A stretch of DNA of 63,184 nt, filler included, from Globobulimina sp. (lineage: Eukaryota), in NCBI GenBank assembly GCA_003354225.1. It is 17 parts of 17 records of this genome, joined end to end, with 100 filler letters (N's around TTAATTAATTAA, not from the genome) between each part and the next. Parts side by side here need not be neighbours in the genome. Positions count along the whole stretch, not along the records: positions 3,726 to 7,350 come from PIVH01002373.1; 16 more parts are not named here. One strand, given 5' to 3'. The stretch's first letter is position 1, and every line of letters starts with the position of its first letter. Made by a program: the position numbers and the translations under genes. The notes below the pieces were generated by a model. The model was given only the letters and a program-made list of their open reading frames with translations. It was not told where the DNA came from and searched no databases. Below are positions 3,896 to 63,184 of this stretch, in pieces.

Positions 3896-4843
3896 TTAAT
3901 CCTCTTTCGGCGGTACATAAATAGCGCCCTTCTGAAACACAACTTTTATTTTCGCAATGCCTTTGCCCAACACCTTCGGATCAGATACCCTCAAAATAGT
4001 GCCATCCTCAAATAACTCACTTATCGTCTTTTCAAAATTTTCCTTGTACAACACTCGAAGTGCTTTGCCAGCCATAAACACCTTATTATCACTGGCAGAA
4101 ACACTCGGGTTCTTTAACTTCAATGTGTTATCATTCAACAACTTCTTATAAAACATATCAAACGTGGTCGCTGCATCCAATTTATACACTATCGGCTCAC
4201 TGCCACACACCGGACACTGCGCATTCTTGGCATAATTAAAAGTCCGCGAATAGATCCATCTTGTCCCATATACATAAAATAGTTATTCAACCCAAACGAG
4301 GCCCAAGTCAGCACCTTCAACGCCTCCGCCACGCACAAGGCGCTGATCAGCGCATTGGTGCTGGCAATGGCGGGGATTATGTTCTTCACCACTTGCATGG
4401 TCAAATGGTACGTAACCCTCTCGATCTTAAACTGCTGCGCGCGATCCTGAGCCATGTTGAATATCCACGACATATGCTCCACATCGTCAGTATCCAAAGC
4501 CACGCCATTCGGATCCGCTATATTCTTATCTGCGATGGGCGCCATATCATAGACCGACGCTGTTTTCAATGATCTGAGTCGAGGCCATGGCATCTTATGT
4601 GAATACGCGATGCAGTGCTCAGGTCGGCGTGGAATGCTTGCAATGGTGCACGATTGGAACACTTTGGGCGGCGTCATAGTGCCCACAGAGCACTCAAAAC
4701 AAGCCGACATCATCGGTACGAATAAGCGACATTGGCCCAAAAAGCCCTCAGTGCCGCCGTCTATGCATGAATGGGATGATTGTGTCGGGGTCGACATTGC
4801 CATCGTCGTCCAACGAGACTAAGTCGCAAAGCATCGTGTTAAT
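3896..4843 (-). pseudogene. UBA3: NEDD8-activating E1 catalytic subunit, 3' half, with two frameshifts and 5' truncation
   Basis: INTMLCDLVSLDDDGNVDPDTIIPF / IDGGTEGFLGQ...CTIASIPRRPEHCI...VKNIIPAIASTNA...NNYFMYMGQDG / IYSRTFNYAKNAQCPVCG. There is a 4-nt insertion at 4765..4768 and a 1-nt deletion at 4255/4256. Homology stops at ~4843 with no splice acceptor. Confidence 0.85.
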
Positions 4844-5153: not shown

Positions 5154-5784
5154 ATAGATCGACAGATCATGATCTCACTGTGATCTATATGCTGTATGAT
5201 CTGACTATGATCTGACTGTGACCTGACTATGATCTGTGATCGTACTGTGATCTCACTGTGATCTTACTATGATCCATATACGTGACGGCATTTGCTTTTA
5301 ATATTCTGAGCTTGCGTGTCATAGCAGAGGCTCGTGTTTATTTAATTAAATAATAATCCATATAATCCATATCCATGCCATCACCGTAGGATTCGAACCT
5401 ACATCCATTTGGTTTCCTTCGTAGATGCCACAAATTGGACCAAACCACCAAAAATCAACATCGCCTCATAAACGACTCAAGATGTCTCAATTTAAAAATC
5501 ACAACAACAGCAGCTCCACAAATAACAATAACAACAATAACAACAATAAAACCCCAACATCCTCCACTTTCCCCTTTAGCTCATGATGTGTGACCCCAAG
5601 CTGATGCAGATACATTAGTTAGATATGTATCTTTTTATTATTTAATAATATTATTTATAGTTAGATCACAGTAAGATCACAGTGCGATCACAGTACGATC
5701 ACAGATCATAGTCAGATCACAGTCAGATCATAGTCAGATCATAGAGCATATAGATCACAGTGAGATCATGATCTGTCGATCTAT
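5154..5784. mobile_element. Foldback/MITE-like element with ~120-bp modular terminal inverted repeats
   Basis: 5154..5274 is the near-perfect reverse complement of 5663..5784. The arms are built from ~11-bp GATC(T/G)(C/G/T)ACT(G/A)T units. TA flanks both ends; there is no ORF inside. Confidence 0.8.
5386..5402 (-). other. tRNA T-arm / Pol III B-box-like hairpin
   Basis: GTAGG-TTCGAAT-CCTAC on the minus strand is a perfect 5-bp stem with a canonical T-loop. I cannot fold a full cloverleaf around it. Confidence 0.4.
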
Positions 5785-6093
5785 GAATACAATTTGCATG
5801 GGCAAAATCTGATCCAAATAATGTGAGCACAAAATTCTAATGCAATATTGACAAGCATGAAATACCAATTTTGTGGCTATTAAATCATTGTTTGCACACA
5901 TAATTTCGTGATGTTTAGAATGTTACTAATTGCAATGTTGTTGCAGTTATAAACAAACGTGGATTAAGGCGCCAACAACAAAATTAATATATTTTGTTGG
6001 TACATAGATGTAAACGCTAGATTTAGAAAAAAAGAAAAAAAACTTTTCAATCATTTTATTTATTTGAAAAGTAAGTAGTTATTAATAGTTGGT

Positions 6094-6109
6094 GGTGTTG
6101 AAAAACACC
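6094..6109 (-). promoter_or_regulatory. Histone mRNA 3' stem-loop (H3)
   Basis: Sense strand TTACCA-GGTGTT-TTTC-AACACC-ACCAA, 70 nt after the H3 stop: 6-bp stem with GG/CC base, 4-nt loop and ACC tail. Confidence 0.85.
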
Positions 6110-6179
6110 TGGTAAAAAACAAAAAAGTATTTACAAAGATAAACAAGATCAAGATGTGATTTACAAAGATTTAATTTAA

Positions 6180-6584
6180 TTAGTTTCCTCTCAATCGTTT
6201 TGCCAAAGCAATATCTTTTCCCATAATGGTAACTCGTTTTGCATGAATAGCGGCCAAATTGGTATCCTCAAACATCGACACCATATATGCCTCGGTTGCT
6301 TCTTGTAATGCAATAATAGCGGTTGCTTGAAAGCGTAAATCGTTTTTAAAATCACCAGCAATCTCTCTCACCAACCTCTGAAATGGCAATTTCCTCAATA
6401 ATAATTCCGTCGATTTCTGATATCTGCGGATCTCTCTCAAAGCAACGGTTCCTGGTCGGAATCTATGTGTTTTCTTAACGCCTCCTGTTGCTGGCGCTGA
6501 TTTGCGCGCTGCTTTGGTTGCTAATTGTTTTCGTGGTGCTTTACCACCAGTTGATTTTCGCGCGGTTTGTTTGGTTCTGGCCAT
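6180..6584 (-). CDS. H3: Histone H3, intronless, divergent
   Basis: [38 protein letters not shown]...; complete histone fold. Confidence 0.99.
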
Positions 6585-7011
6585 TTTATTAAAAAGTAAT
6601 AAGAATTAATTAATTTTAATTAAAATAAAGTGTTTTTTATAGGATTTGGTGATAGTTTGATATTTTGTTGTTGTTTAAAAGCTAAAAAATCGATTCAGTT
6701 TTCTTTTTCACACAGATACGATCCATTAAAAATTATTGGCTATTCACGAATCACACGCTTCACAATAATATATGTTCAAAATTGCAATTCCATTCGATCT
6801 GACATGTGATCGATGAATATAAATTGGGATTAGCAGTGGCTTGACGTCGACTTAATTCAATTTTTGATTAGCACTAATGCCGTGATGTTTGATTGTTTCT
6901 GATGTTTGAAGTGTGACTTAAGTGAAAACCTAGAAACGTTAAATAAACAATTAATGCTTACTGCGCATGCCGCGGACAAAGAGAGGGATATATATTACAT
7001 GTTTAATTGGT

Positions 7012-7027
7012 GGTGTTGAGAAACACC
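7012..7027 (-). promoter_or_regulatory. Histone mRNA 3' stem-loop (H2B)
   Basis: Sense strand TTACCA-GGTGTT-TCTC-AACACC-ACCAA, 45 nt after the H2B stop. Identical to the H3 element except for one loop base. Confidence 0.85.
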
Positions 7028-7072
7028 TGGTAAAAAATAAAAATTAAATAAATAATTGATTGATTGATTGCT

Positions 7073-7350
7073 TTATTGTGCGTATTTATTGACTGCTTTG
7101 CTTGCCTCAGTTTCCGCATGTTTTGAGAGCTCGCCGGGTAGTACCAATTTGCAGGCACACTGAACTGCTCTGGCATCCATTGTGGCTTTCTTGTTATATT
7201 TGACGATGTTGGCGGCTTCGCCTGCGATCCGATCAAATGTGTCATGCACGAAGCCGTTCATCACATTCATGGCTCGTTTACTCATTCCAATGTCCGGATG
7301 CACTTGTTTTAAAACCTTGAAAATATAAATATTGAATGTCTCTTTTCTTT
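7073..7350 (-). CDS. H2B: Histone H2B, 5'-truncated by the contig end
   Basis: [46 protein letters not shown]...[24 protein letters not shown]. Confidence 0.97.
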
Positions 7351-7450
7351 NNNNNNNNNNNNNNNNNNNNNNNNNNNNNNNNNNNNNNNNNNNNTTAATT
7401 AATTAANNNNNNNNNNNNNNNNNNNNNNNNNNNNNNNNNNNNNNNNNNNN

Positions 7451-7569
7451 CCGTCGTCGCAAACTGCTTTGAAAATGCGCGGTGCCGCCACGAAGCACGA
7501 CGTGGCGGAGCTGAATGTGCTCGCATATATACCTGAAAAAAAGTGTACATATCATACAAAATAAATAGA
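7451..7569. repeat. Exact 119-bp terminal direct repeat of contig 7451..11074 (circular or tandem assembly signature)
   Basis: Identical to 10956..11074. Confidence 0.95.
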
Positions 7570-9430: not shown

Positions 9431-11074
9431 TTAAAAACAAAAAGTCAAGAGCTGATCCTGAGTGCCCCGGACGAAGACAGTCGGAATTCCATCCGGAGTG
9501 AGGTCCGAAATACACTGCGCATACTCGTACCATTTATACTTCTTCCTCGGATACGGCATTGTCAATAAACATAAGGCGGCGTCGCGAGAGTTTTCTTGAA
9601 TGGTTTGGCCCACTCGCTTGTATTTAATAATTTTGTCCTTTGCAAAATGCGACACTTTCCTCCTCCCTTTGCCCTCCGCATTGTTGTTGTTGTTATTATC
9701 ATCCTCCTTTTCTTCGTCTGCCACCACATTCGCATTGCAATTCTCATCCAATTCGTCGTCGTCCTCCACTCCGATATCAAATAATATTTCGTCCTGCACA
9801 GAGTGCACATGTTTGATCTCGGCGTCAATCCGCAATTTGGCCACCAACGAAACCATTTCAGTGTGATCCTCGAAGCCGATCTCAGACAGCGCCATGATGC
9901 GCAACTTGTAATTGCGAAATTGTTTGTGTTTGGTCAACAAATATCCCGTCAATATGGTCAGACCGCCGTCGTCGAACAGCCACCAAATGTCAATGGTGCC
10001 GCTCGAAGTGATGTCGTTGTCGATCAGAATGTTGGTCAAATTGAACTTATTCGGCACCACAATCACTCCCAAGCCGGACAGCAAGGCGTTGGTCAAATTG
10101 GTGAACCACAGAGGTTGCTGCGTGTCCATCGACAAGTGGTTGTTTTGGTGGTTGTTGATGGATTCGTCGATTTTGATCATAAACACGTTTGGCTGCATCC
10201 CGCCCATTCCCGCCAACTGGATCATGTTCGCGGTGCCAACCTCGTAATTCTCGGCGATGCAGCATTCCATTATGCATTGCTTGACGATGTCCGCCGACAA
10301 GTGATATTTGAGATAGTTTTTGCGTTTCAACACGTAATCCTCCGCGGTCTCGCCGTCCGACAGCGAGCCGAGCATAACGTGGCCGATCATAATCAAACCC
10401 TGTCCGTAATTGATGCATTTGGCGAAGTTGAACAGCGTCAACACGTCGTCCTGGTTGCTGCCATACAGCATCATCAGAAAAGTGGGCCGCGCGATCTTGG
10501 CATGCTCCGTGTTCATTTGCTGGTATTTGAGCGCGATTTTGCAGCCTTTCAAGTAGAGCGCAGACTCGACGGTGGTGCCCCAGTTCACGTCGGGATTGCG
10601 AGCCTCGATGTATTTGTAGCAGATGACGCCAATGATGACCGTGGCCAACGCCATGATCCAATCGATGAGGAACATCAGCACCACCGACTGGAAGGTGGCG
10701 AACAGCGACAAGTACGGCGAGTAATATTTGAAGGTCGGCCTCCAGCCCGGCGACTTGCTGATGTCCCAAGCAAACACGCTGTAATTCACCAAGGCGTACG
10801 TGATCAGGAAGAAGTTGGTCACCATCGGCGCGATGAAGTTGATGTCGCCGGTCAGCATTATCAGGAAACAGATCGCCATCACCAACACGTAGCAGCGCAC
10901 CGGCTCGTTGTCCTTGGCGCGCCCCACCGCGAAAAAGGAGAAAATGGGAAATAGGCCGTCGTCGCAAACTGCTTTGAAAATGCGCGGTGCCGCCACGAAG
11001 CACGACGTGGCGGAGCTGAATGTGCTCGCATATATACCTGAAAAAAAGTGTACATATCATACAAAATAAATAGA
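9431..11074 (-). CDS. SLC12 cation-chloride cotransporter (NKCC/KCC/CCC family), C-terminal half
   Basis: APRIFKAVCDD, NEPVRCY, NFFLITYALVN, SPGWRPTFKYY, PDVNWG, AGMGGMQPN, GTIDIWWLFDDGGLTIL, PTVFVRG. Confidence 0.93.
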
Positions 11075-31515: not shown

Positions 31516-31568
31516 GATTGAAAACTAATGTTTTTCAGATACACTATCTTAGTGTTGCTGCAACATCC

Positions 31569-33227
31569 ATGTCACAACGTGGTATGATACAAACATCCAT
31601 GCAAACCGCTGAAGGTGGAGATGAATTAAAAGCTTTTTTATTTTTAAATGAGGACAAATTAAAATCAAAAGCAACGACACTCAAAATCCATAAAGCATTA
31701 ACAAGGAATATAATCGATAAGGATGATTTAATGAGTTTAAGTGAAATTGATTTGAGAGAAACCCTTCAATCATTGGAGTATGATGATAACGGCGATAAAT
31801 TAAAATCATTGGAAATTGGTCGATTAATAAATGTCATCAAAACAACACCAGATTCTGAAATATTTAAAGCAAATAATACAAAATCATCAACAGTCATTGT
31901 TGTGACCCAAACAGTTCAGGAACAACAAGCCATAAATAAAATTGATTCAAAAAAACAAGAAACCTTAAAAATATTAAAAAAAATAAACAATGATATTGCA
32001 GCACTAAATACCGACACTCAAAATGCCAAAAATATCATAAATAATAATTTTGATGACATAATAAAAAAATCGAATGAGCAAAGAAATAAATTATTAAACA
32101 ACATTGACAACGTTGCAAGCAGTAAATCATCAAAATTATTGACACGACAAAAAGAATTACAAAGCTATCATAATAAATTAATTGAGTCAAGAAAGTTGAT
32201 AACAAATTTATATGCAGATACATCTTATGATGCTGTTAAAAGGCAACATAAAATTATTGAAATTGCAGAAAAATCAATTGCTGTTCTACAATATGTTGAG
32301 ATGACAAAGTTTTGTCTAGATTTGGATATTAGAGATGTATTAAATTTATTAACCAAGACAGGATCGGTCAGCTTTGGTCTATCCTTCCCACCAAACATTC
32401 AAATTGGAGCAATAACCAGCTCTTCTGCGGATATTATATTGTCGAAAAATGAGAAAAATAACAGTTCAGCTTTAAAACCAAGTGGATATAAACATAAATA
32501 TGCAGAAATTACGGATAATTTTGATATAAAATCGGATGATGATGATTTGAAATTAGATTGGCAAAGAGGTGCAACTCATGCAGATGCAAAGAAATATACA
32601 ATGAAATGCCTTAAACCGGCAACAAAATATTTAGTGAAAGTGGCAACGCGCAATAAAAATGGATATGGAGCATATACAAGCGCACAATTTCAGACGACGA
32701 CAGGTCGGACAGGATTAACTTTTTCAATTTATAATAAAAAGTGGGTGTCAATGTTGAAAGGTAACACTGAATTTGTAGCGAAAAATAGTGGGATTGCAAA
32801 TAGAATAGCTACGTCTGCAGTTGGTTATAGCAAAGGTTATTATGAATGGAAAATTAAATGTATTCATGATTCTGGCTCATATCAGGCAATTGGTGTTATT
32901 TCTGACTTAAAGCAAGTTTCGCAGATGACAAATCGATGGTTTGGTAGCGGAAGCGGTTATCAATATTATTGGTATGGTTATCAGAATAAAAAAATATTTT
33001 CATACTTGAGTGACGTAAATCAAAATATAGTTGAACAAGTTGATGAACAATGGGGAACTGGTGATATTATAACAATAATGTTGGATTGCGATAATTCAAG
33101 AATGGGATTTAAAAAAAATGATAGATTTATTGGGAAAATGTTTGATATTCAATCGAATGTAACATATTATCCATGTTTAGCTTGTTGTGGTGCTCAAGAT
33201 CATTATATTACTGTTACTGATGTATAA
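31569..33227 (+). CDS. SAM-like + coiled-coil + FN3 + SPRY (TRIM-like architecture)
   Basis: DDLMSLSEIDLRETL; long coiled coil; LKPATKYLVKVATRNKNGYGAYT; GYYEWKIKC...IGVI...WGTGDIITIMLDCD...YYPCL. Confidence 0.85.
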   Translation: MSQRGMIQTSMQTAEGGDELKAFLFLNEDKLKSKATTLKIHKALTRNIIDKDDLMSLSEIDLRETLQSLEYDDNGDKLKSLEIGRLINVIKTTPDSEIFKANNTKSSTVIVVTQTVQEQQAINKIDSKKQETLKILKKINNDIAALNTDTQNAKNIINNNFDDIIKKSNEQRNKLLNNIDNVASSKSSKLLTRQKELQSYHNKLIESRKLITNLYADTSYDAVKRQHKIIEIAEKSIAVLQYVEMTKFCLDLDIRDVLNLLTKTGSVSFGLSFPPNIQIGAITSSSADIILSKNEKNNSSALKPSGYKHKYAEITDNFDIKSDDDDLKLDWQRGATHADAKKYTMKCLKPATKYLVKVATRNKNGYGAYTSAQFQTTTGRTGLTFSIYNKKWVSMLKGNTEFVAKNSGIANRIATSAVGYSKGYYEWKIKCIHDSGSYQAIGVISDLKQVSQMTNRWFGSGSGYQYYWYGYQNKKIFSYLSDVNQNIVEQVDEQWGTGDIITIMLDCDNSRMGFKKNDRFIGKMFDIQSNVTYYPCLACCGAQDHYITVTDV

Positions 33228-40958: not shown

Positions 40959-43275
40959 GTAACAACAAATATACAGAATCATAAATAGCAAAATATAAAA
41001 CTTTAATAAATGATTCAAAATATTCCATCCTTCAATAAAAGAAAAAAAAATAAACACAAACCAGGTAATTGATTGCGTTCTTTGCTTATAATGTCTCGAT
41101 TGCGCTCCCTTTCGTCCCTGTTCTCATCCACTTTGCGCCGTTTCCGCGCATTCCTATAGGTCTCGATTGTGGATTCCTCCACGCCTTCCAAGTCTACATT
41201 GTTGCTGGTCACATATCTCTTAACCAACAACGACTGCGGCAAGTAATACAAACAGACATATTTACTCACACCGCCTGCAATCAGTAACTTGCCATTGGGC
41301 GAATAATTAATAGTGGTGAAATGGTTAGTTTTCGCCCTCTTTCTCGATCCGTTCCTACCACCCATCACATCCATGCCTATGTCGATGCTGTTCAAGTGTT
41401 TGCCAGTCACAACCTCATAAATCTGCAACTGTCCGCCCAGAGTACACAGACATATTTCTTTCCCATCAAACCGATAATCAACATCTAATATCTCCGAATT
41501 GCACTCAATAATCTCGCGCGACGCCGACGAGTATAAATCCCAAAAACGCAGCGTTTTATCCCACGAACCCGACACCAAAATGTTGGTCTTGGACGAGAAT
41601 GTCAAACATGAGACGGGTCCTTCGTGGCCATACAAGACATCCAAACATTTGCCAGTACGCAGGGACCACACATAAATCTCAAACGGCTCCTCGCAGCCAG
41701 CCATTATAACCTCCCCCGAATCGTCCACTGCTAAGCAGATAAACCTCGCGGTTTGCTGCGGCGCGCCGGAATGCAACTTATTTTCGAGCATTTTCTTCCT
41801 ACGCTTAGCACCGTCGGAGGGATCGCCACCACCATCAGCATCAGCAGCAGTGGTCATATCACTGACCAAATCCGACAAAAAACGTTTATAATCGGCGTCA
41901 TTCGGCGGCGTCAATGTCCTGAAGTTTATATAACGCAGCAAGTCGTAAACGCGCACCGTTCCGTCCAACGACGCCGTCATGATCAGCACATTGTTCTTTT
42001 TCGCAAAGGTTATCTGCGTAATCGGCGCAGTGTGGTCATGAAAGGTGATAAAGCAAAATCCGTTGCTGGCGTTCCATATTTTCAATTTTCCGTCATGCCC
42101 TCCAGTCGCAATCAAGTTGCCGTCCAAGCTGAAAGCCATACAGTTGACGTCGTAGAAATGTCCCTGTTGCTTCAAAATATAAGTTTCAGAGCGCCATTCC
42201 CAGACAAATAACTGGCCCAACTCTCCCGAGGAGAACCCAATCCAATCGCCAATATTGTTGATGACGCAGGAAGTGATATTGCTGTTGGAGATGGTGAGCG
42301 AGTGAATCAACTCGAAATTCGGCATCTTATACAAATGGAACCGGCCACTCGACATTCCCACCACTAATAAATCGCAGCTTTTGCCCAGGAAAAAGGACGC
42401 ACAGTTTATTATGTAGTCTTTTTTCCAGCCCGTTCCATGTCTGATGCCCAACTTATAATATCCATTGGGAGTATATTGCGCGTACATTAATAATGGCTGC
42501 GTCTCTTTGTATTCCGCGTGAACTGCCCGTTGGGCGCCGGCAATGTATTGGTATACATAGCCAGTGCGGGTCACTACGTATAGCTGATAGTAGGTTTATT
42601 GTGTTTTTATTATGATTAATCATCAGAATTACAAAAACGAAATAGAATAATTGTGAATTTAACTTTGTAATCGGAACCAAAGAAAGCTTCGATCACTTGA
42701 CCTCTATGGGACGGCAATCTCTGCGATCTGAAGGGCTTTTGTTTATGCAATGCATGGATTTTCACAGTCTTATCTTTGGAGCCAGACACAAAAAATTGCG
42801 AGTCTGGCGACCATGAAATGCACGTAATATCTCCCTGATGGCCACGGTATTTGCCGTATAGGTACATTGCCCTCCATTCGATGATTAAGGAAGGCGACTT
42901 CCAAACAGATATCCAATTCCCGTGGGCGACACATAAATATTTGCTGTCAGGCGAAAATTTCAACACTGTGACGCTGGATCCTTTGTGACTGAAATTCATG
43001 GTCGCTAACACGATTTGCTTTTGGAAGTTAAGGATGGCGCCAAAACCTAGGGAGTCGACGGTGACTAATAGTTTATTGTCGGGTGAGAGCGCTATGCATG
43101 TGATGTTGTGTTGCATCTGGAAGCGTAACGTTTGTGAGGAGTGGTTAACGAGATCGAATACGGCTATTCTGTTTGCGACGGGGGAGACCATGGAGCTGCC
43201 ATCTGCCGTGAATAAGATGTTCCCTTCGCGATAGGCACAACCACAAATGTTTGTGAATTGGTAATTGAGTCGCAT
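40959..43275 (-). CDS. PWP2: Periodic tryptophan protein 2 / Utp1 (SSU processome WD40 protein), 3'-truncated
   Basis: MRLNYQFTNICGCAYREGNILFT...SPVANRIAVFDL; LGQLFVWEWRSETYILKQQGH; GFCFITFHDHTAP; ASLDGTVRVYDLLRYINFRT; GHEGPVS. Confidence 0.95.
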
Positions 43276-60214: not shown

Positions 60215-63184
60215 TCAACGAATTGCATTTGTAATGAATTGTGTGGGTAATTGCGGTGCTTGTGAGTTGTGACCAGGCGATAAATTATCATATTCATATT
60301 CATCAATATTTTCATCATTGACAGTATTTATCATATCATGTTTTTTAACCATAACAAAAGTCTCGATATTCTTATAAAACCATTCCGTTAGAAATTGATG
60401 GTGTTCCTTAAAATATTGTTTATCGATATCATCATCCTCCAATATATCATATAGCCAATCAACACTCGCTTTATATTGTTGTTGCTCATAAAATGGTTTT
60501 TGTTCATTTTCAGATTTAAATATATAATTTCTTGTTACACGAAACGGTGTTAAATTAAACTCACAATCCATTATAAATTGAATAAACTCATCTTCCACTT
60601 GATGATGATGTATTGTGTTAATTGTTAAAGATTTACATAATTTTACCATACAAATAAATTTTTCGCGTTTACTATTAAATTGAACACACCATCGCTTTGA
60701 GTCAATATTCCATAATTTCTGTAAATTATCCTTCGATACAAATGGATTTGCTTTAAATTGTTGCATTTCGATATGTGTGTTTACAGCAGAAAGATAAAGA
60801 GAATGTGTATTATCATTTCCAACCAAATCGTTTTTAAATTCACCTCTAATGTCATCATATTTAGATTTTCGAATTCGAAACAACATAATCAATGCACCCA
60901 AACCCATCACAACTGGTAACAATCCCAAATGCAATATCATTTTTTGAAAATCATTTATTGAATCAGAAATAACAAAAAATGTAAAAAAATCGGTCCATAA
61001 AACACCAAAATTAAAAGCACACGATGTAATATTTTGCGTTCGAAAATAAAACGGTGGTTTTAATAATAATGTTATGCACAAAATGAGTGAAGCAATGAAT
61101 AATATTATCGTAAATATATATGAATACGTTAATATTTTAATATTTGTGCTTGATTCTGGCTCAGCAATTAAATAAACAGTGACTGCGACCATAATAATTT
61201 TGATAGTATGATCAACAAATGCCAAGTCCGCAGTTCTTGCACTTCCTGAATGTACTCTTCGTGTATCCGCGGCATCACCGCTCCATTTCCGCCATGAATA
61301 TACATCACAACATAATATATCCCCTTCTAAGCGAGCAAACCGATACGACAATGTAATGAATACTGACAAAGTGATTGCTGTTATTGCCATGTATATTAAA
61401 TGCAAATTTGATTCAAAATAACACTTATTTGGAACAATTAAAAAGTTTTGCAAATCTGCTTTATTGCATGTAAATGACCTTAATAAAATACGAAATATTG
61501 GAATGAAGGCAATGGTGCTTGCAATCCATATCAATGTAGCTGTGATTGAACGCAATCTGTCACTGCATTTAGTGACTCCCCATTTCAATTTATACTGAAT
61601 ACAAAATGAAAAAATAAATATCCAAATAAATACGACCACACTTATCCAAATAAAGGAGATGTCGATATTTGATGATGGCAAATTAAAATTAATATTCAGC
61701 GCAGAAGCATCAAATTGGAATTGGAAAAGTGCTGATGTTAAATCAAATGGATTGTATGTTGCATTGCTCTCTCCCCAATCAATCATATCAATGCTAAATG
61801 TAAAAGTACACAATTGGAAGAATTCGATAATTAAACTGATCCAACCAATAAGTATGTCTTTTTTTGGTTGGGTTATTGTGTTTCTTTTACATTCTTTATT
61901 ACCAAAACAGTGCAATGCTTTCCCAGTGTTAATATTCCATGATATTACTAAGCCGCATCTGTCCGCTGTGAAAACAATATCATTTTCATTATCAATCATG
62001 ATTTTATTTAAATAATCTTCATGTCGCTGAAATGCCCATATTAATTTGTAATTATTTGCTCTGTCGTAACATCGAATCATTTCATCTTTACCTCCGGTTA
62101 TAATAAATCTGTGATTTGCGTCTATTCCACGCACTGAACCTTCATTGTCATGAATGGAAAATAATATTTCCCCGTTTGGGATTGAATAACACCGAGTATA
62201 TTCATCACGGCTTGCAGTGCATAACACCGAGTAAGAAGAGCCAGTTAAACACATATAATTTATGGCATCTTTATGCGGAATAAATTCTATACTTTTATAA
62301 TTTGGCGCTGATAAATCCCAACAATGTATACAGCCACAATCATCACCAGATAATAAATGAATATTTTTATTATTATTTGCATATGAAACTCTTAACTCAT
62401 TTACGGATTTATTTGCTTTATGTCCTTTTAACTCAATCCTTGCAATATTTGCTATGGTTCGTTTTTTACTGTGATCAATGTCAATATTTAAATCCCATGA
62501 ATAAATCATACCGTTTGATCCTCCGACAAATATTTTATTTAACTCTGCTATAAATACGACATTATTTAATATACACTTTTTAGATCTATCCACATATAGA
62601 AAATTACCATTAAATAACGAGCCTATTCTGAATGTTTCATCATCGCTCACAGTAAATATTAATTTTCTATCCTTATCAATTGCAAAATCCCTGATTTGTT
62701 TGTCATGTTTAAATATAAACTGCGGCGAATTCATAATCTTTGGTAGTTTATATTTATTACTTTCAATCTGTTTGGTAGTTGGATAGAGGCAATATTTTGC
62801 ATCACAAATATCTGTCAACCAAACACAACATTTTCCATCAGCACTGCAGGAGACCAAATACGTACTTTCATCCTTCTCATCCATCAATATTTCCTTTATA
62901 TTAAACACTTGATTGTTATGCTCACAAAACACACCCAAACCATATCCGGTCATTATATCCCAAACTCGAACGGTTCCATCATCACTCCCTGTAAATAAAT
63001 ACTTGCTATCTACTGACAAACACATTGACCGCACTGCGCCCGAATGTTGATATACATTTGCAATTTTTTGCAATGAATTGACATTATTATATGCCCGAAT
63101 TGAGGCTATCAAACTGTTGAATAATTTCGTCACATTTTTAAACTCTTCAAAATCTTCAAAACTCGTCACTTCCATAACCGTCAC
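60215..63184 (-). CDS. WD40 repeat protein with a C-terminal multi-TM domain, probably 5'-truncated
   Basis: About 8 WD repeats (LFTGSDDGTVRVWD, IITGGKDEMIRCYD) then 7-8 TM helices beginning LIIEFFQLCTFTF. Confidence 0.85.
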   Translation of the reverse strand: MTVMEVTSFEDFEEFKNVTKLFNSLIASIRAYNNVNSLQKIANVYQHSGAVRSMCLSVDSKYLFTGSDDGTVRVWDIMTGYGLGVFCEHNNQVFNIKEILMDEKDESTYLVSCSADGKCCVWLTDICDAKYCLYPTTKQIESNKYKLPKIMNSPQFIFKHDKQIRDFAIDKDRKLIFTVSDDETFRIGSLFNGNFLYVDRSKKCILNNVVFIAELNKIFVGGSNGMIYSWDLNIDIDHSKKRTIANIARIELKGHKANKSVNELRVSYANNNKNIHLLSGDDCGCIHCWDLSAPNYKSIEFIPHKDAINYMCLTGSSYSVLCTASRDEYTRCYSIPNGEILFSIHDNEGSVRGIDANHRFIITGGKDEMIRCYDRANNYKLIWAFQRHEDYLNKIMIDNENDIVFTADRCGLVISWNINTGKALHCFGNKECKRNTITQPKKDILIGWISLIIEFFQLCTFTFSIDMIDWGESNATYNPFDLTSALFQFQFDASALNINFNLPSSNIDISFIWISVVVFIWIFIFSFCIQYKLKWGVTKCSDRLRSITATLIWIASTIAFIPIFRILLRSFTCNKADLQNFLIVPNKCYFESNLHLIYMAITAITLSVFITLSYRFARLEGDILCCDVYSWRKWSGDAADTRRVHSGSARTADLAFVDHTIKIIMVAVTVYLIAEPESSTNIKILTYSYIFTIILFIASLILCITLLLKPPFYFRTQNITSCAFNFGVLWTDFFTFFVISDSINDFQKMILHLGLLPVVMGLGALIMLFRIRKSKYDDIRGEFKNDLVGNDNTHSLYLSAVNTHIEMQQFKANPFVSKDNLQKLWNIDSKRWCVQFNSKREKFICMVKLCKSLTINTIHHHQVEDEFIQFIMDCEFNLTPFRVTRNYIFKSENEQKPFYEQQQYKASVDWLYDILEDDDIDKQYFKEHHQFLTEWFYKNIETFVMVKKHDMINTVNDENIDEYEYDNLSPGHNSQAPQLPTQFITNAIR

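Follow-up and report, generated by a model that had tools for sequence, protein, structure and literature searches.

The histone H3 and H2B genes in a stretch of DNA from Globobulimina sp. (GenBank assembly GCA_003354225.1) are each followed by a short RNA hairpin with the common core GGUGUU-U(U/C)UC-AACACC-ACCA. To judge from their sequence, both hairpins are very probably histone mRNA stem-loops of the type that stem-loop binding protein (SLBP) recognises. The whole stretch, here called the window, is 63,184 nucleotides long with filler included and has a G+C content of about 33%. The sequence, structure, position and strand of the element are directly observed, as are its confinement in the window to histone genes and its conservation behind five histone classes in related metagenome loci. 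As an explanation of the data as a whole, we favour, on balance, histone 3′ stem-loops that bind SLBP, with a foraminifer as the probable source of the genome.

Both histone genes lie on the minus strand and are arranged head to tail, with H2B upstream of H3 (Table 1). The H2B frame runs into the N runs that flank the TTAATTAATTAA linker, and it is thus the assembly that cuts this gene short. Linkers of this type within N runs are, as we assume, marks of scaffold joins; the segment may thus be an assembly join, and the DNA to its right may not be the true genomic neighbour of H2B. Besides these two, no further histone gene was found in the 63 kb by tblastn with the H2A, H2B, H3, H4 and H1 proteins of related contigs. 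The remaining genes recognised with Pfam encode a cation-chloride cotransporter, a ThiF-family fragment, an fn3-SPRY protein and two WD40 proteins.

Table 1. Features of the window discussed in the text (positions count along the whole window).
Feature	Position	Strand	Description
Histone H3 gene	6180..6584	-	Intronless, single open frame, 134 aa; Pfam Histone E 2.4e-42, profile 2-122/122
Histone H2B gene	7073..7350	-	C-terminal 92 residues readable; Pfam Histone E 1.8e-12
N runs with TTAATTAATTAA linker	7351..7451		Cut off the 5′ part of the H2B gene
Conserved 37-nt block, H3 3′ UTR	6089..6125	-	U-run, ACCA, stem-loop (stem 6094-6109, loop UUUC), ACCAA
Conserved 37-nt block, H2B 3′ UTR	7007..7043	-	U-run, ACCA, stem-loop (stem 7012-7027, loop UCUC), ACCAA
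Two overlapping AATAAA hexamers	6055..6064	-	About 30 nt past the H3 stem; putative poly(A) signal
ATTAAA hexamer	7002..7007	-	Right after the ACCA of the H2B stem-loop; putative poly(A) signal
SLC12 cation-chloride cotransporter	9431-11056		Pfam
ThiF-family fragment	4189-4818		Pfam
fn3-SPRY	31518-33227		Pfam
WD40	41015-42595		Pfam
WD40	60215-63184		Pfam

The closest database matches of the H3 protein are unnamed metagenome H3s, also of 134 aa, with 96% identity, which are uninformative about the placement of the organism. The H2B fragment is 91% identical to the H2B proteins of the foraminifera Bolivina argentea and Nonionella stella in EukProt. The SLC12 transporter frame shares 59% identity with a protein from Ammonia sp., a genus that a taxonomy lookup places in Foraminifera, with two unnamed proteins ranking higher (62–63%). 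By these protein matches, the window belongs in Foraminifera or very close to that group. Both histones are of unusual form. The H3 has a length of 134 aa and ends in ...AKRLRGN, and the H2B, unusual in sequence, is also present in two foraminiferal transcriptomes; the two forms recur in many unnamed metagenome proteins, with 90–99% identity. The H3 hairpin is followed, some 300 nt downstream, by a foldback element of 631 bp (5154–5784), whose terminal inverted repeats of 121 nt are 97% complementary and made of short GATCACAGT-like units; it looks like a MITE-type insertion.

When the 3′ regions of H3 and H2B are aligned, they share a single block of 37 columns, 35 of which are identical, with the sequence TTTTT(G/A)TTTTTTACCA-GGTGTT-T(T/C)TC-AACACC-ACCAA. 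Read as RNA, the hairpin with its 3′ flank is GGUGUU-UUUC-AACACC-ACCAAC behind H3 and GGUGUU-UCUC-AACACC-ACCAAU behind H2B, and the first G of the stem follows the stop codon after 70 nt and 45 nt, respectively. The sequences around the blocks give no meaningful alignment between the two UTRs. A preliminary description of this DNA had reported the same block behind both genes, 45–70 nt after the stop and in otherwise unrelated UTRs, all of which agrees with these measurements. It had also given one loop base as the only difference, and here the alignment corrects it, as there are two, one at loop position 2 and one in the T run. Loop position 2 is variable in animals too.

The element is rare in the window outside of these two positions. 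GGTGTTNNNNAACACC, with at most one mismatch allowed, occurs twice against 0.08 occurrences expected, and none of 100 shuffles reached two. A generic hairpin scan of both strands, defined by a 6-bp stem on a GG/CC base, uridines in loop positions 1 and 3 and an AC flank, returned exactly two sites, which are the H3 and H2B hairpins. Combined with the tblastn search, this gives two of two histone genes with a hairpin and no other site in the 63 kb, and none of the other genes (SLC12, ThiF, fn3-SPRY and both WD40) has it behind its end. Each of the two sites folds as a 6-bp stem with a 4-nt loop, ((((((....)))))), at a minimum free energy of -6.7 kcal/mol, in agreement with the cmscan structure. 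The folding z-scores of -1.7 and -2.6 are weak taken alone, as is expected for so small a hairpin.

A hint in the same direction comes from public sequencing runs, seven of which share words with the region, none recorded as RNA; the contigs of four of them, of unknown kind, were compared with the window. Pieces identical to the window end at 6118 and 7034, at the edges of the conserved blocks, and many contigs match the block and then diverge, with loose ends at 6079–6131 and 7051–7056. Breaks and branches at the block edges are what would be expected for a block common to several loci, although they give no count of such loci. The depth over the block is likewise a sum and does not stand for a copy number.

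In its details, the hairpin has much in common with the animal histone stem-loop (Rfam Histone3, RF00032). Shared with it are the 6-bp stem, the 4-nt loop, the GG/CC base, the U-A top pair, the uridines at loop positions 1 and 3 and the ACC(A) flank, and the UUUC loop of H3 is the animal consensus loop. As in animals, the element is found on the sense strand, tens of nucleotides after the stop codon of intronless, clustered histone genes. The differences lie in the stem core, which is UGUU/AACA here and a pyrimidine run in animals, as the preliminary description had already recognised, and in the 5′ flank, which is U-rich with ACCA here and A-rich in animals. Moreover, stem pair 4 is a G-C whose purine lies in the 5′ strand of the stem, where the animal consensus differs, and a purine-rich histone downstream element (HDE) is not seen.

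The loop uridine at position 1, the ACC 3′ flank and the U-A top pair matter for SLBP, and both window hairpins have them, with the flank extended to ACCA. Both hairpins also keep the G-C at stem pair 2 and the U at loop position 3, two positions that the text of a recent survey calls diagnostic (Zhao, Bond and Ni Leathlobhair, bioRxiv 10.64898/2026.10.14.759114, October 2026). According to the same text, the median distance between stop codon and hairpin is 30 nt in animals, compared with the 45–70 nt of the window (Zhao et al., 2026).

With Rfam at gathering cut-offs, no match was obtained in the whole window, the cut-off for Histone3 being 34 bits. A permissive Histone3 scan of positions 5900–7300 scores the H2B site with 30.4 bits (E 2.4e-6) and the H3 site with 29.7 bits (E 4.1e-6), and the alignments of both sites span all 46 positions of the model. 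Recourse to this model, which the preliminary description had envisaged, thus brings out both hairpins but neither of them at the cut-off, from which they remain about 4 bits away, a deficit that arises in the stem core and in the flanks. The related loci that were fetched contain 32 hairpins (E ≤0.01) with Rfam scores of 23.8–34.8 bits, and one of the 32 reaches 34. As the window sites stay below 34 bits and a single one of the 32 relatives passes, we class the element as a divergent relative of RF00032 that would function as the family does, and not as a member by threshold. These sub-cut-off scores, together with the 5′ flank that is not A-rich and the identity of stem pair 4, count against the SLBP-type reading.

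The related loci come from a search of metagenome contigs with the 22-nt core CCAGGTGTTTNTCAACACCACC as an exact motif, which resulted in 33 sites on 28 contigs. For each site, the longest frame of at least 50 aa that ends no more than 400 nt upstream in the orientation of the hairpin was compared with Pfam. Such a frame was present at 30 sites and encodes a histone at 21 of them, namely H2A (5), H2B (7), H3 (4), H4 (2) and linker histone H1 (3); the two H4 calls combine weak Pfam scores with a clearly H4-like C-terminus. All 21 histone frames are in sense and end 33–153 nt before the stem, with a median of 58 nt. Of the three sites with short flanks, two show the C-termini of H2A and H2B, and the third has no flank. 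This places the hairpin behind histone genes at 23 of the 32 evaluable sites, always in sense, and elsewhere at 9. On several contigs (L004, L014, L022, and L016 with L018), the hairpin is repeated behind each of two or three histone genes. The occurrence behind H2A, H2B, H3, H4 and H1, along with the full 46-position alignment to Histone3, sustains the earlier assignment of the window elements to histone-type 3′ stem-loops.

The relatives differ considerably in the histones that they encode. The H2B of L014 is 89% identical to the window H2B and belongs to the same unusual type, and L007 encodes an ordinary H2B with 58% identity. Since the identical core stands behind H2B types that are this far apart, the variant is not limited to one narrow lineage. 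The system had at first been described as lineage-specific, a term that is too narrow for a 22-nt core found unchanged behind H2A and H2B genes of the other type and in virus-like contigs. As the relatives were gathered by the exact motif, covariation in the stem cannot show in this set; the sole variant stem in the fetched loci, GGTGTC-TTTC-GACACC in L025, has a two-sided (compensatory) change of the top pair. Two of the histone loci also contain RNA genes, a U2 snRNA gene (97.8 bits) that adjoins the H3 gene of L027 at 75–247, and a tRNA gene inside the H3-H4-H2B cluster of L016 at 578–650.

At 9 of the 30 sites with an upstream frame, the frame is not a histone, which counts against a strict histone specificity everywhere. 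One motif site, on L019, lies in GC-rich DNA next to where a eukaryotic LSU rRNA gene has its 3′ end (locus 1310–1850) and may be due to chance. The other non-histone sites are found in AT-rich, gene-dense DNA, with the hairpin 22–67 nt behind ORFs (L001/L005, L008, L012, L024, L025, L026). This position was considered as proof of a 3′-UTR role and rejected, as converging ORFs on the opposite strand end equally near at about five of the nine sites. L025 contains two hairpins behind non-histone ORFs, and the second of them is the variant GGTGTC...GACACC. Searches of the non-histone ORFs against PHROGs and Pfam returned no families, with the exception of L024, a soil contig related to the virus-like ones described below, in which the ORF matches phage endonuclease VII/HNH families.

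Sites of this kind are what a generic hairpin terminator, or a small DNA repeat that happens to lie near histone genes and is unrelated to SLBP, would lead one to expect. Such an origin would also agree with the modest folding scores and with a virus-like contig in which the hairpin ends five consecutive genes. It is nevertheless very improbable, given that within the window the two histone genes have the block and all other genes are without it, and that it keeps the sense orientation and a UTR distance throughout, for all five histone classes. In addition, the end-to-end match to Histone3 includes unpaired loop and flank positions that a terminator would not need.

Beyond the hairpin, little is shared among the histone genes. 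No AAAGAG-like or purine-rich element was seen after either of the two window hairpins, and the flank of H2B is pyrimidine-rich; the absence of a purine-rich downstream element, which had been noted before for the window as the lack of an AAAGAG-like HDE, extends to the 23 related flanks. Among 25 histone-linked hairpins, conservation stops at ACCA(A), and the purine fraction is 0.37–0.52 in every 5-nt bin from +1 to +70. None of the 5-mers or 6-mers in the 23 flanks of at least 35 nt is common above the level of shuffled flanks, and the best 6-mer, CCAACA, is present in 4 of 23, which equals the median maximum of the null. Nor do gene pairs from the same contig (L004, L014, L016, L022 and the window) have any downstream sequence in common beyond ACCA(A). 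Purine runs of at least 6 nt occur in 8 of the 23 flanks, such as AAAGAAGAGG at +23 in L011.

The preliminary description had suggested a system that might be independent of U7 or combined with polyadenylation. These results do not establish that U7 is absent, because a downstream element need only pair with the U7 of the organism itself. In a canonical system of SLBP and U7 snRNP, the element could escape both the eye and k-mer statistics if it is very short, strongly divergent or specific to single genes, and the purine runs just mentioned would be candidates for it. LSM10 and LSM11 are moreover widespread outside animals, although the examples given in the text of the survey do not include Rhizaria (Zhao et al., 2026). 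A hidden U7 guide is nonetheless doubtful in view of the flat purine profile, the k-mer counts that do not exceed those of shuffled flanks and the same-contig pairs. The U7 model (RF00066) also has no match in the window at its gathering score, an observation of little weight for a whole genome. With no animal-type downstream element, guidance by a recognisable U7/HDE pair is rated no likelier than the SLBP-bound hairpin acting alone or with later polyadenylation.

In the SLBP-type reading, which we prefer, the hairpin would be transcribed within the pre-mRNA of the histone gene and read by a stem-loop binding protein through the second stem pair (G-C), the uridines of the loop and the ACCA flank. 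Once bound, the hairpin would mark histone messages for coordinated 3′-end formation, translation and turnover, and the 3′ end would be cut a few bases past the stem, within or just beyond ACCA. SLBP binding, cleavage at ACCA and the machinery that would guide it are what we infer from the sequence. That histone mRNAs actually end at the hairpin, cut at ACCA or directly behind it, seems likely, if by no means assured.

Alternatively, the SLBP-type hairpin could lie inside a 3′ UTR of mature mRNAs that are polyadenylated further downstream, so that it would act in the control of stability or translation and not as a cleavage signal. An arrangement of this kind has been suggested for Physarum, for Dictyostelium and for early-diverging fungi. 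Hexamers that could serve as poly(A) signals follow both hairpins (Table 1), and no HDE-like guide for U7 is seen. Precedents are available as well, since the histone genes of Physarum bear both signals and give poly(A)+ transcripts, as stated in a study of this organism (PMC8600027), and states with a stem-loop plus a poly(A) signal are described for early fungi in the text of the survey (Zhao et al., 2026). Against this, AWTAAA occurs 418 times in the 63-kb window, or roughly once in every 300 nt of each strand, and is commoner in AT-rich spacers, so that two matches prove little and may themselves be chance. The tight conservation of ACCA after the stem also fits a role in cleavage or end protection. 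Downstream polyadenylation is a possible outcome, but one that we do not expect. The readings overlap, as binding of SLBP is common to the versions with end-marking, with polyadenylation and with a cryptic U7.

In 2008, Davila Lopez and Samuelsson reportedly described histone genes of Physarum and Dictyostelium that combine a stem-loop with a poly(A) signal. In the histone genes of Physarum polycephalum and Dictyostelium, the stem-loop is located 30–50 nt or more past the stop codon with poly(A)-like hexamers nearby (PMC8600027), which resembles the arrangement in the window. The authors' search for U7 in Physarum was unsuccessful (PMC8600027). Physarum differs in belonging to another eukaryotic supergroup, and its flanks were scored with a purine-rich, HDE-like stretch (PMC8600027) that is unseen here.

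On a broader scale, a survey of 310 protist species found histone genes with a downstream stem-loop in 214 of them, and the text of this survey describes for Rhizaria both SLBP and stem-loops in which the diagnostic positions are retained (Zhao et al., 2026). The hairpins of the window resemble those of the surveyed protists in keeping these positions, and their metagenome relatives span all core histone classes. Rhizarian stem-loops are said there to be near the stop codon (Zhao et al., 2026), whereas the distance is 45–70 nt in the window and has a median of 58 nt in 21 related genes. The main text of the survey names no foraminifer (Foraminifera, Reticulomyxa and Retaria have 0 occurrences), although its supplementary tables may list some (Zhao et al., 2026). 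A literature search on histone stem-loops in foraminifera or Reticulomyxa returned nothing specific. The kind of element is thus already known, Rhizaria included, and what is added here is a foraminiferal case, an invariant variant of the hairpin and the lack of a downstream element.

The most unusual observation of the analysis lies outside the window, in two virus contigs of IMG/VR (33,105 nt and 30,282 nt) that contain the same motif behind non-histone genes. The larger one (record G001, the source of L031), which is rated complete, has six sites of the stem pattern compared with none in a reversed control. Within a frame of 2152 aa lies a protein-primed family B DNA polymerase, and neither a histone fold nor an SLBP domain was found in this contig. 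An NCLDV capsid model was unmatched as well, which is uninformative, as the model matched no control genome either. In the first 5,267 nt of the 30,282-nt contig (L032–L034), all five same-strand ORFs of at least 100 aa are followed after 52–93 nt by a composite element, in which a hairpin of variable sequence, (C)ACCA, the histone-type GGUGUU hairpin and ACCA succeed one another. No report of virus-like elements that end their genes with a histone hairpin was found in the literature.

It is conceivable, though unlikely, that in this protist lineage GGUGUU-UYUC-AACACC-ACCA is a self-sufficient, portable 3′-end signal that is read by SLBP without U7 or an HDE, and that virus-like linear elements tap the histone mRNA pathway of their hosts through it. 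A portable signal would explain why nothing is conserved downstream and why the hairpin, after a variable second hairpin, stands behind the non-histone genes of the virus-like elements. If this were confirmed, it would exemplify a mobile element that borrows the histone mRNA pathway.

The occurrence of histone stem-loops beyond animals is relevant to the time at which the SLBP/U7 pathway originated and to the manner of its loss or rebuilding. The window offers a clean foraminiferal example, with a hairpin variant that is unusually invariant across histone classes in environmental relatives. With the Rfam cut-off passing one of the 32 related matches, automated surveys would under-count this lineage. 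As its histone genes have no common downstream element, they provide a practical setting in which to ask whether SLBP-dependent 3′-end formation works without U7.
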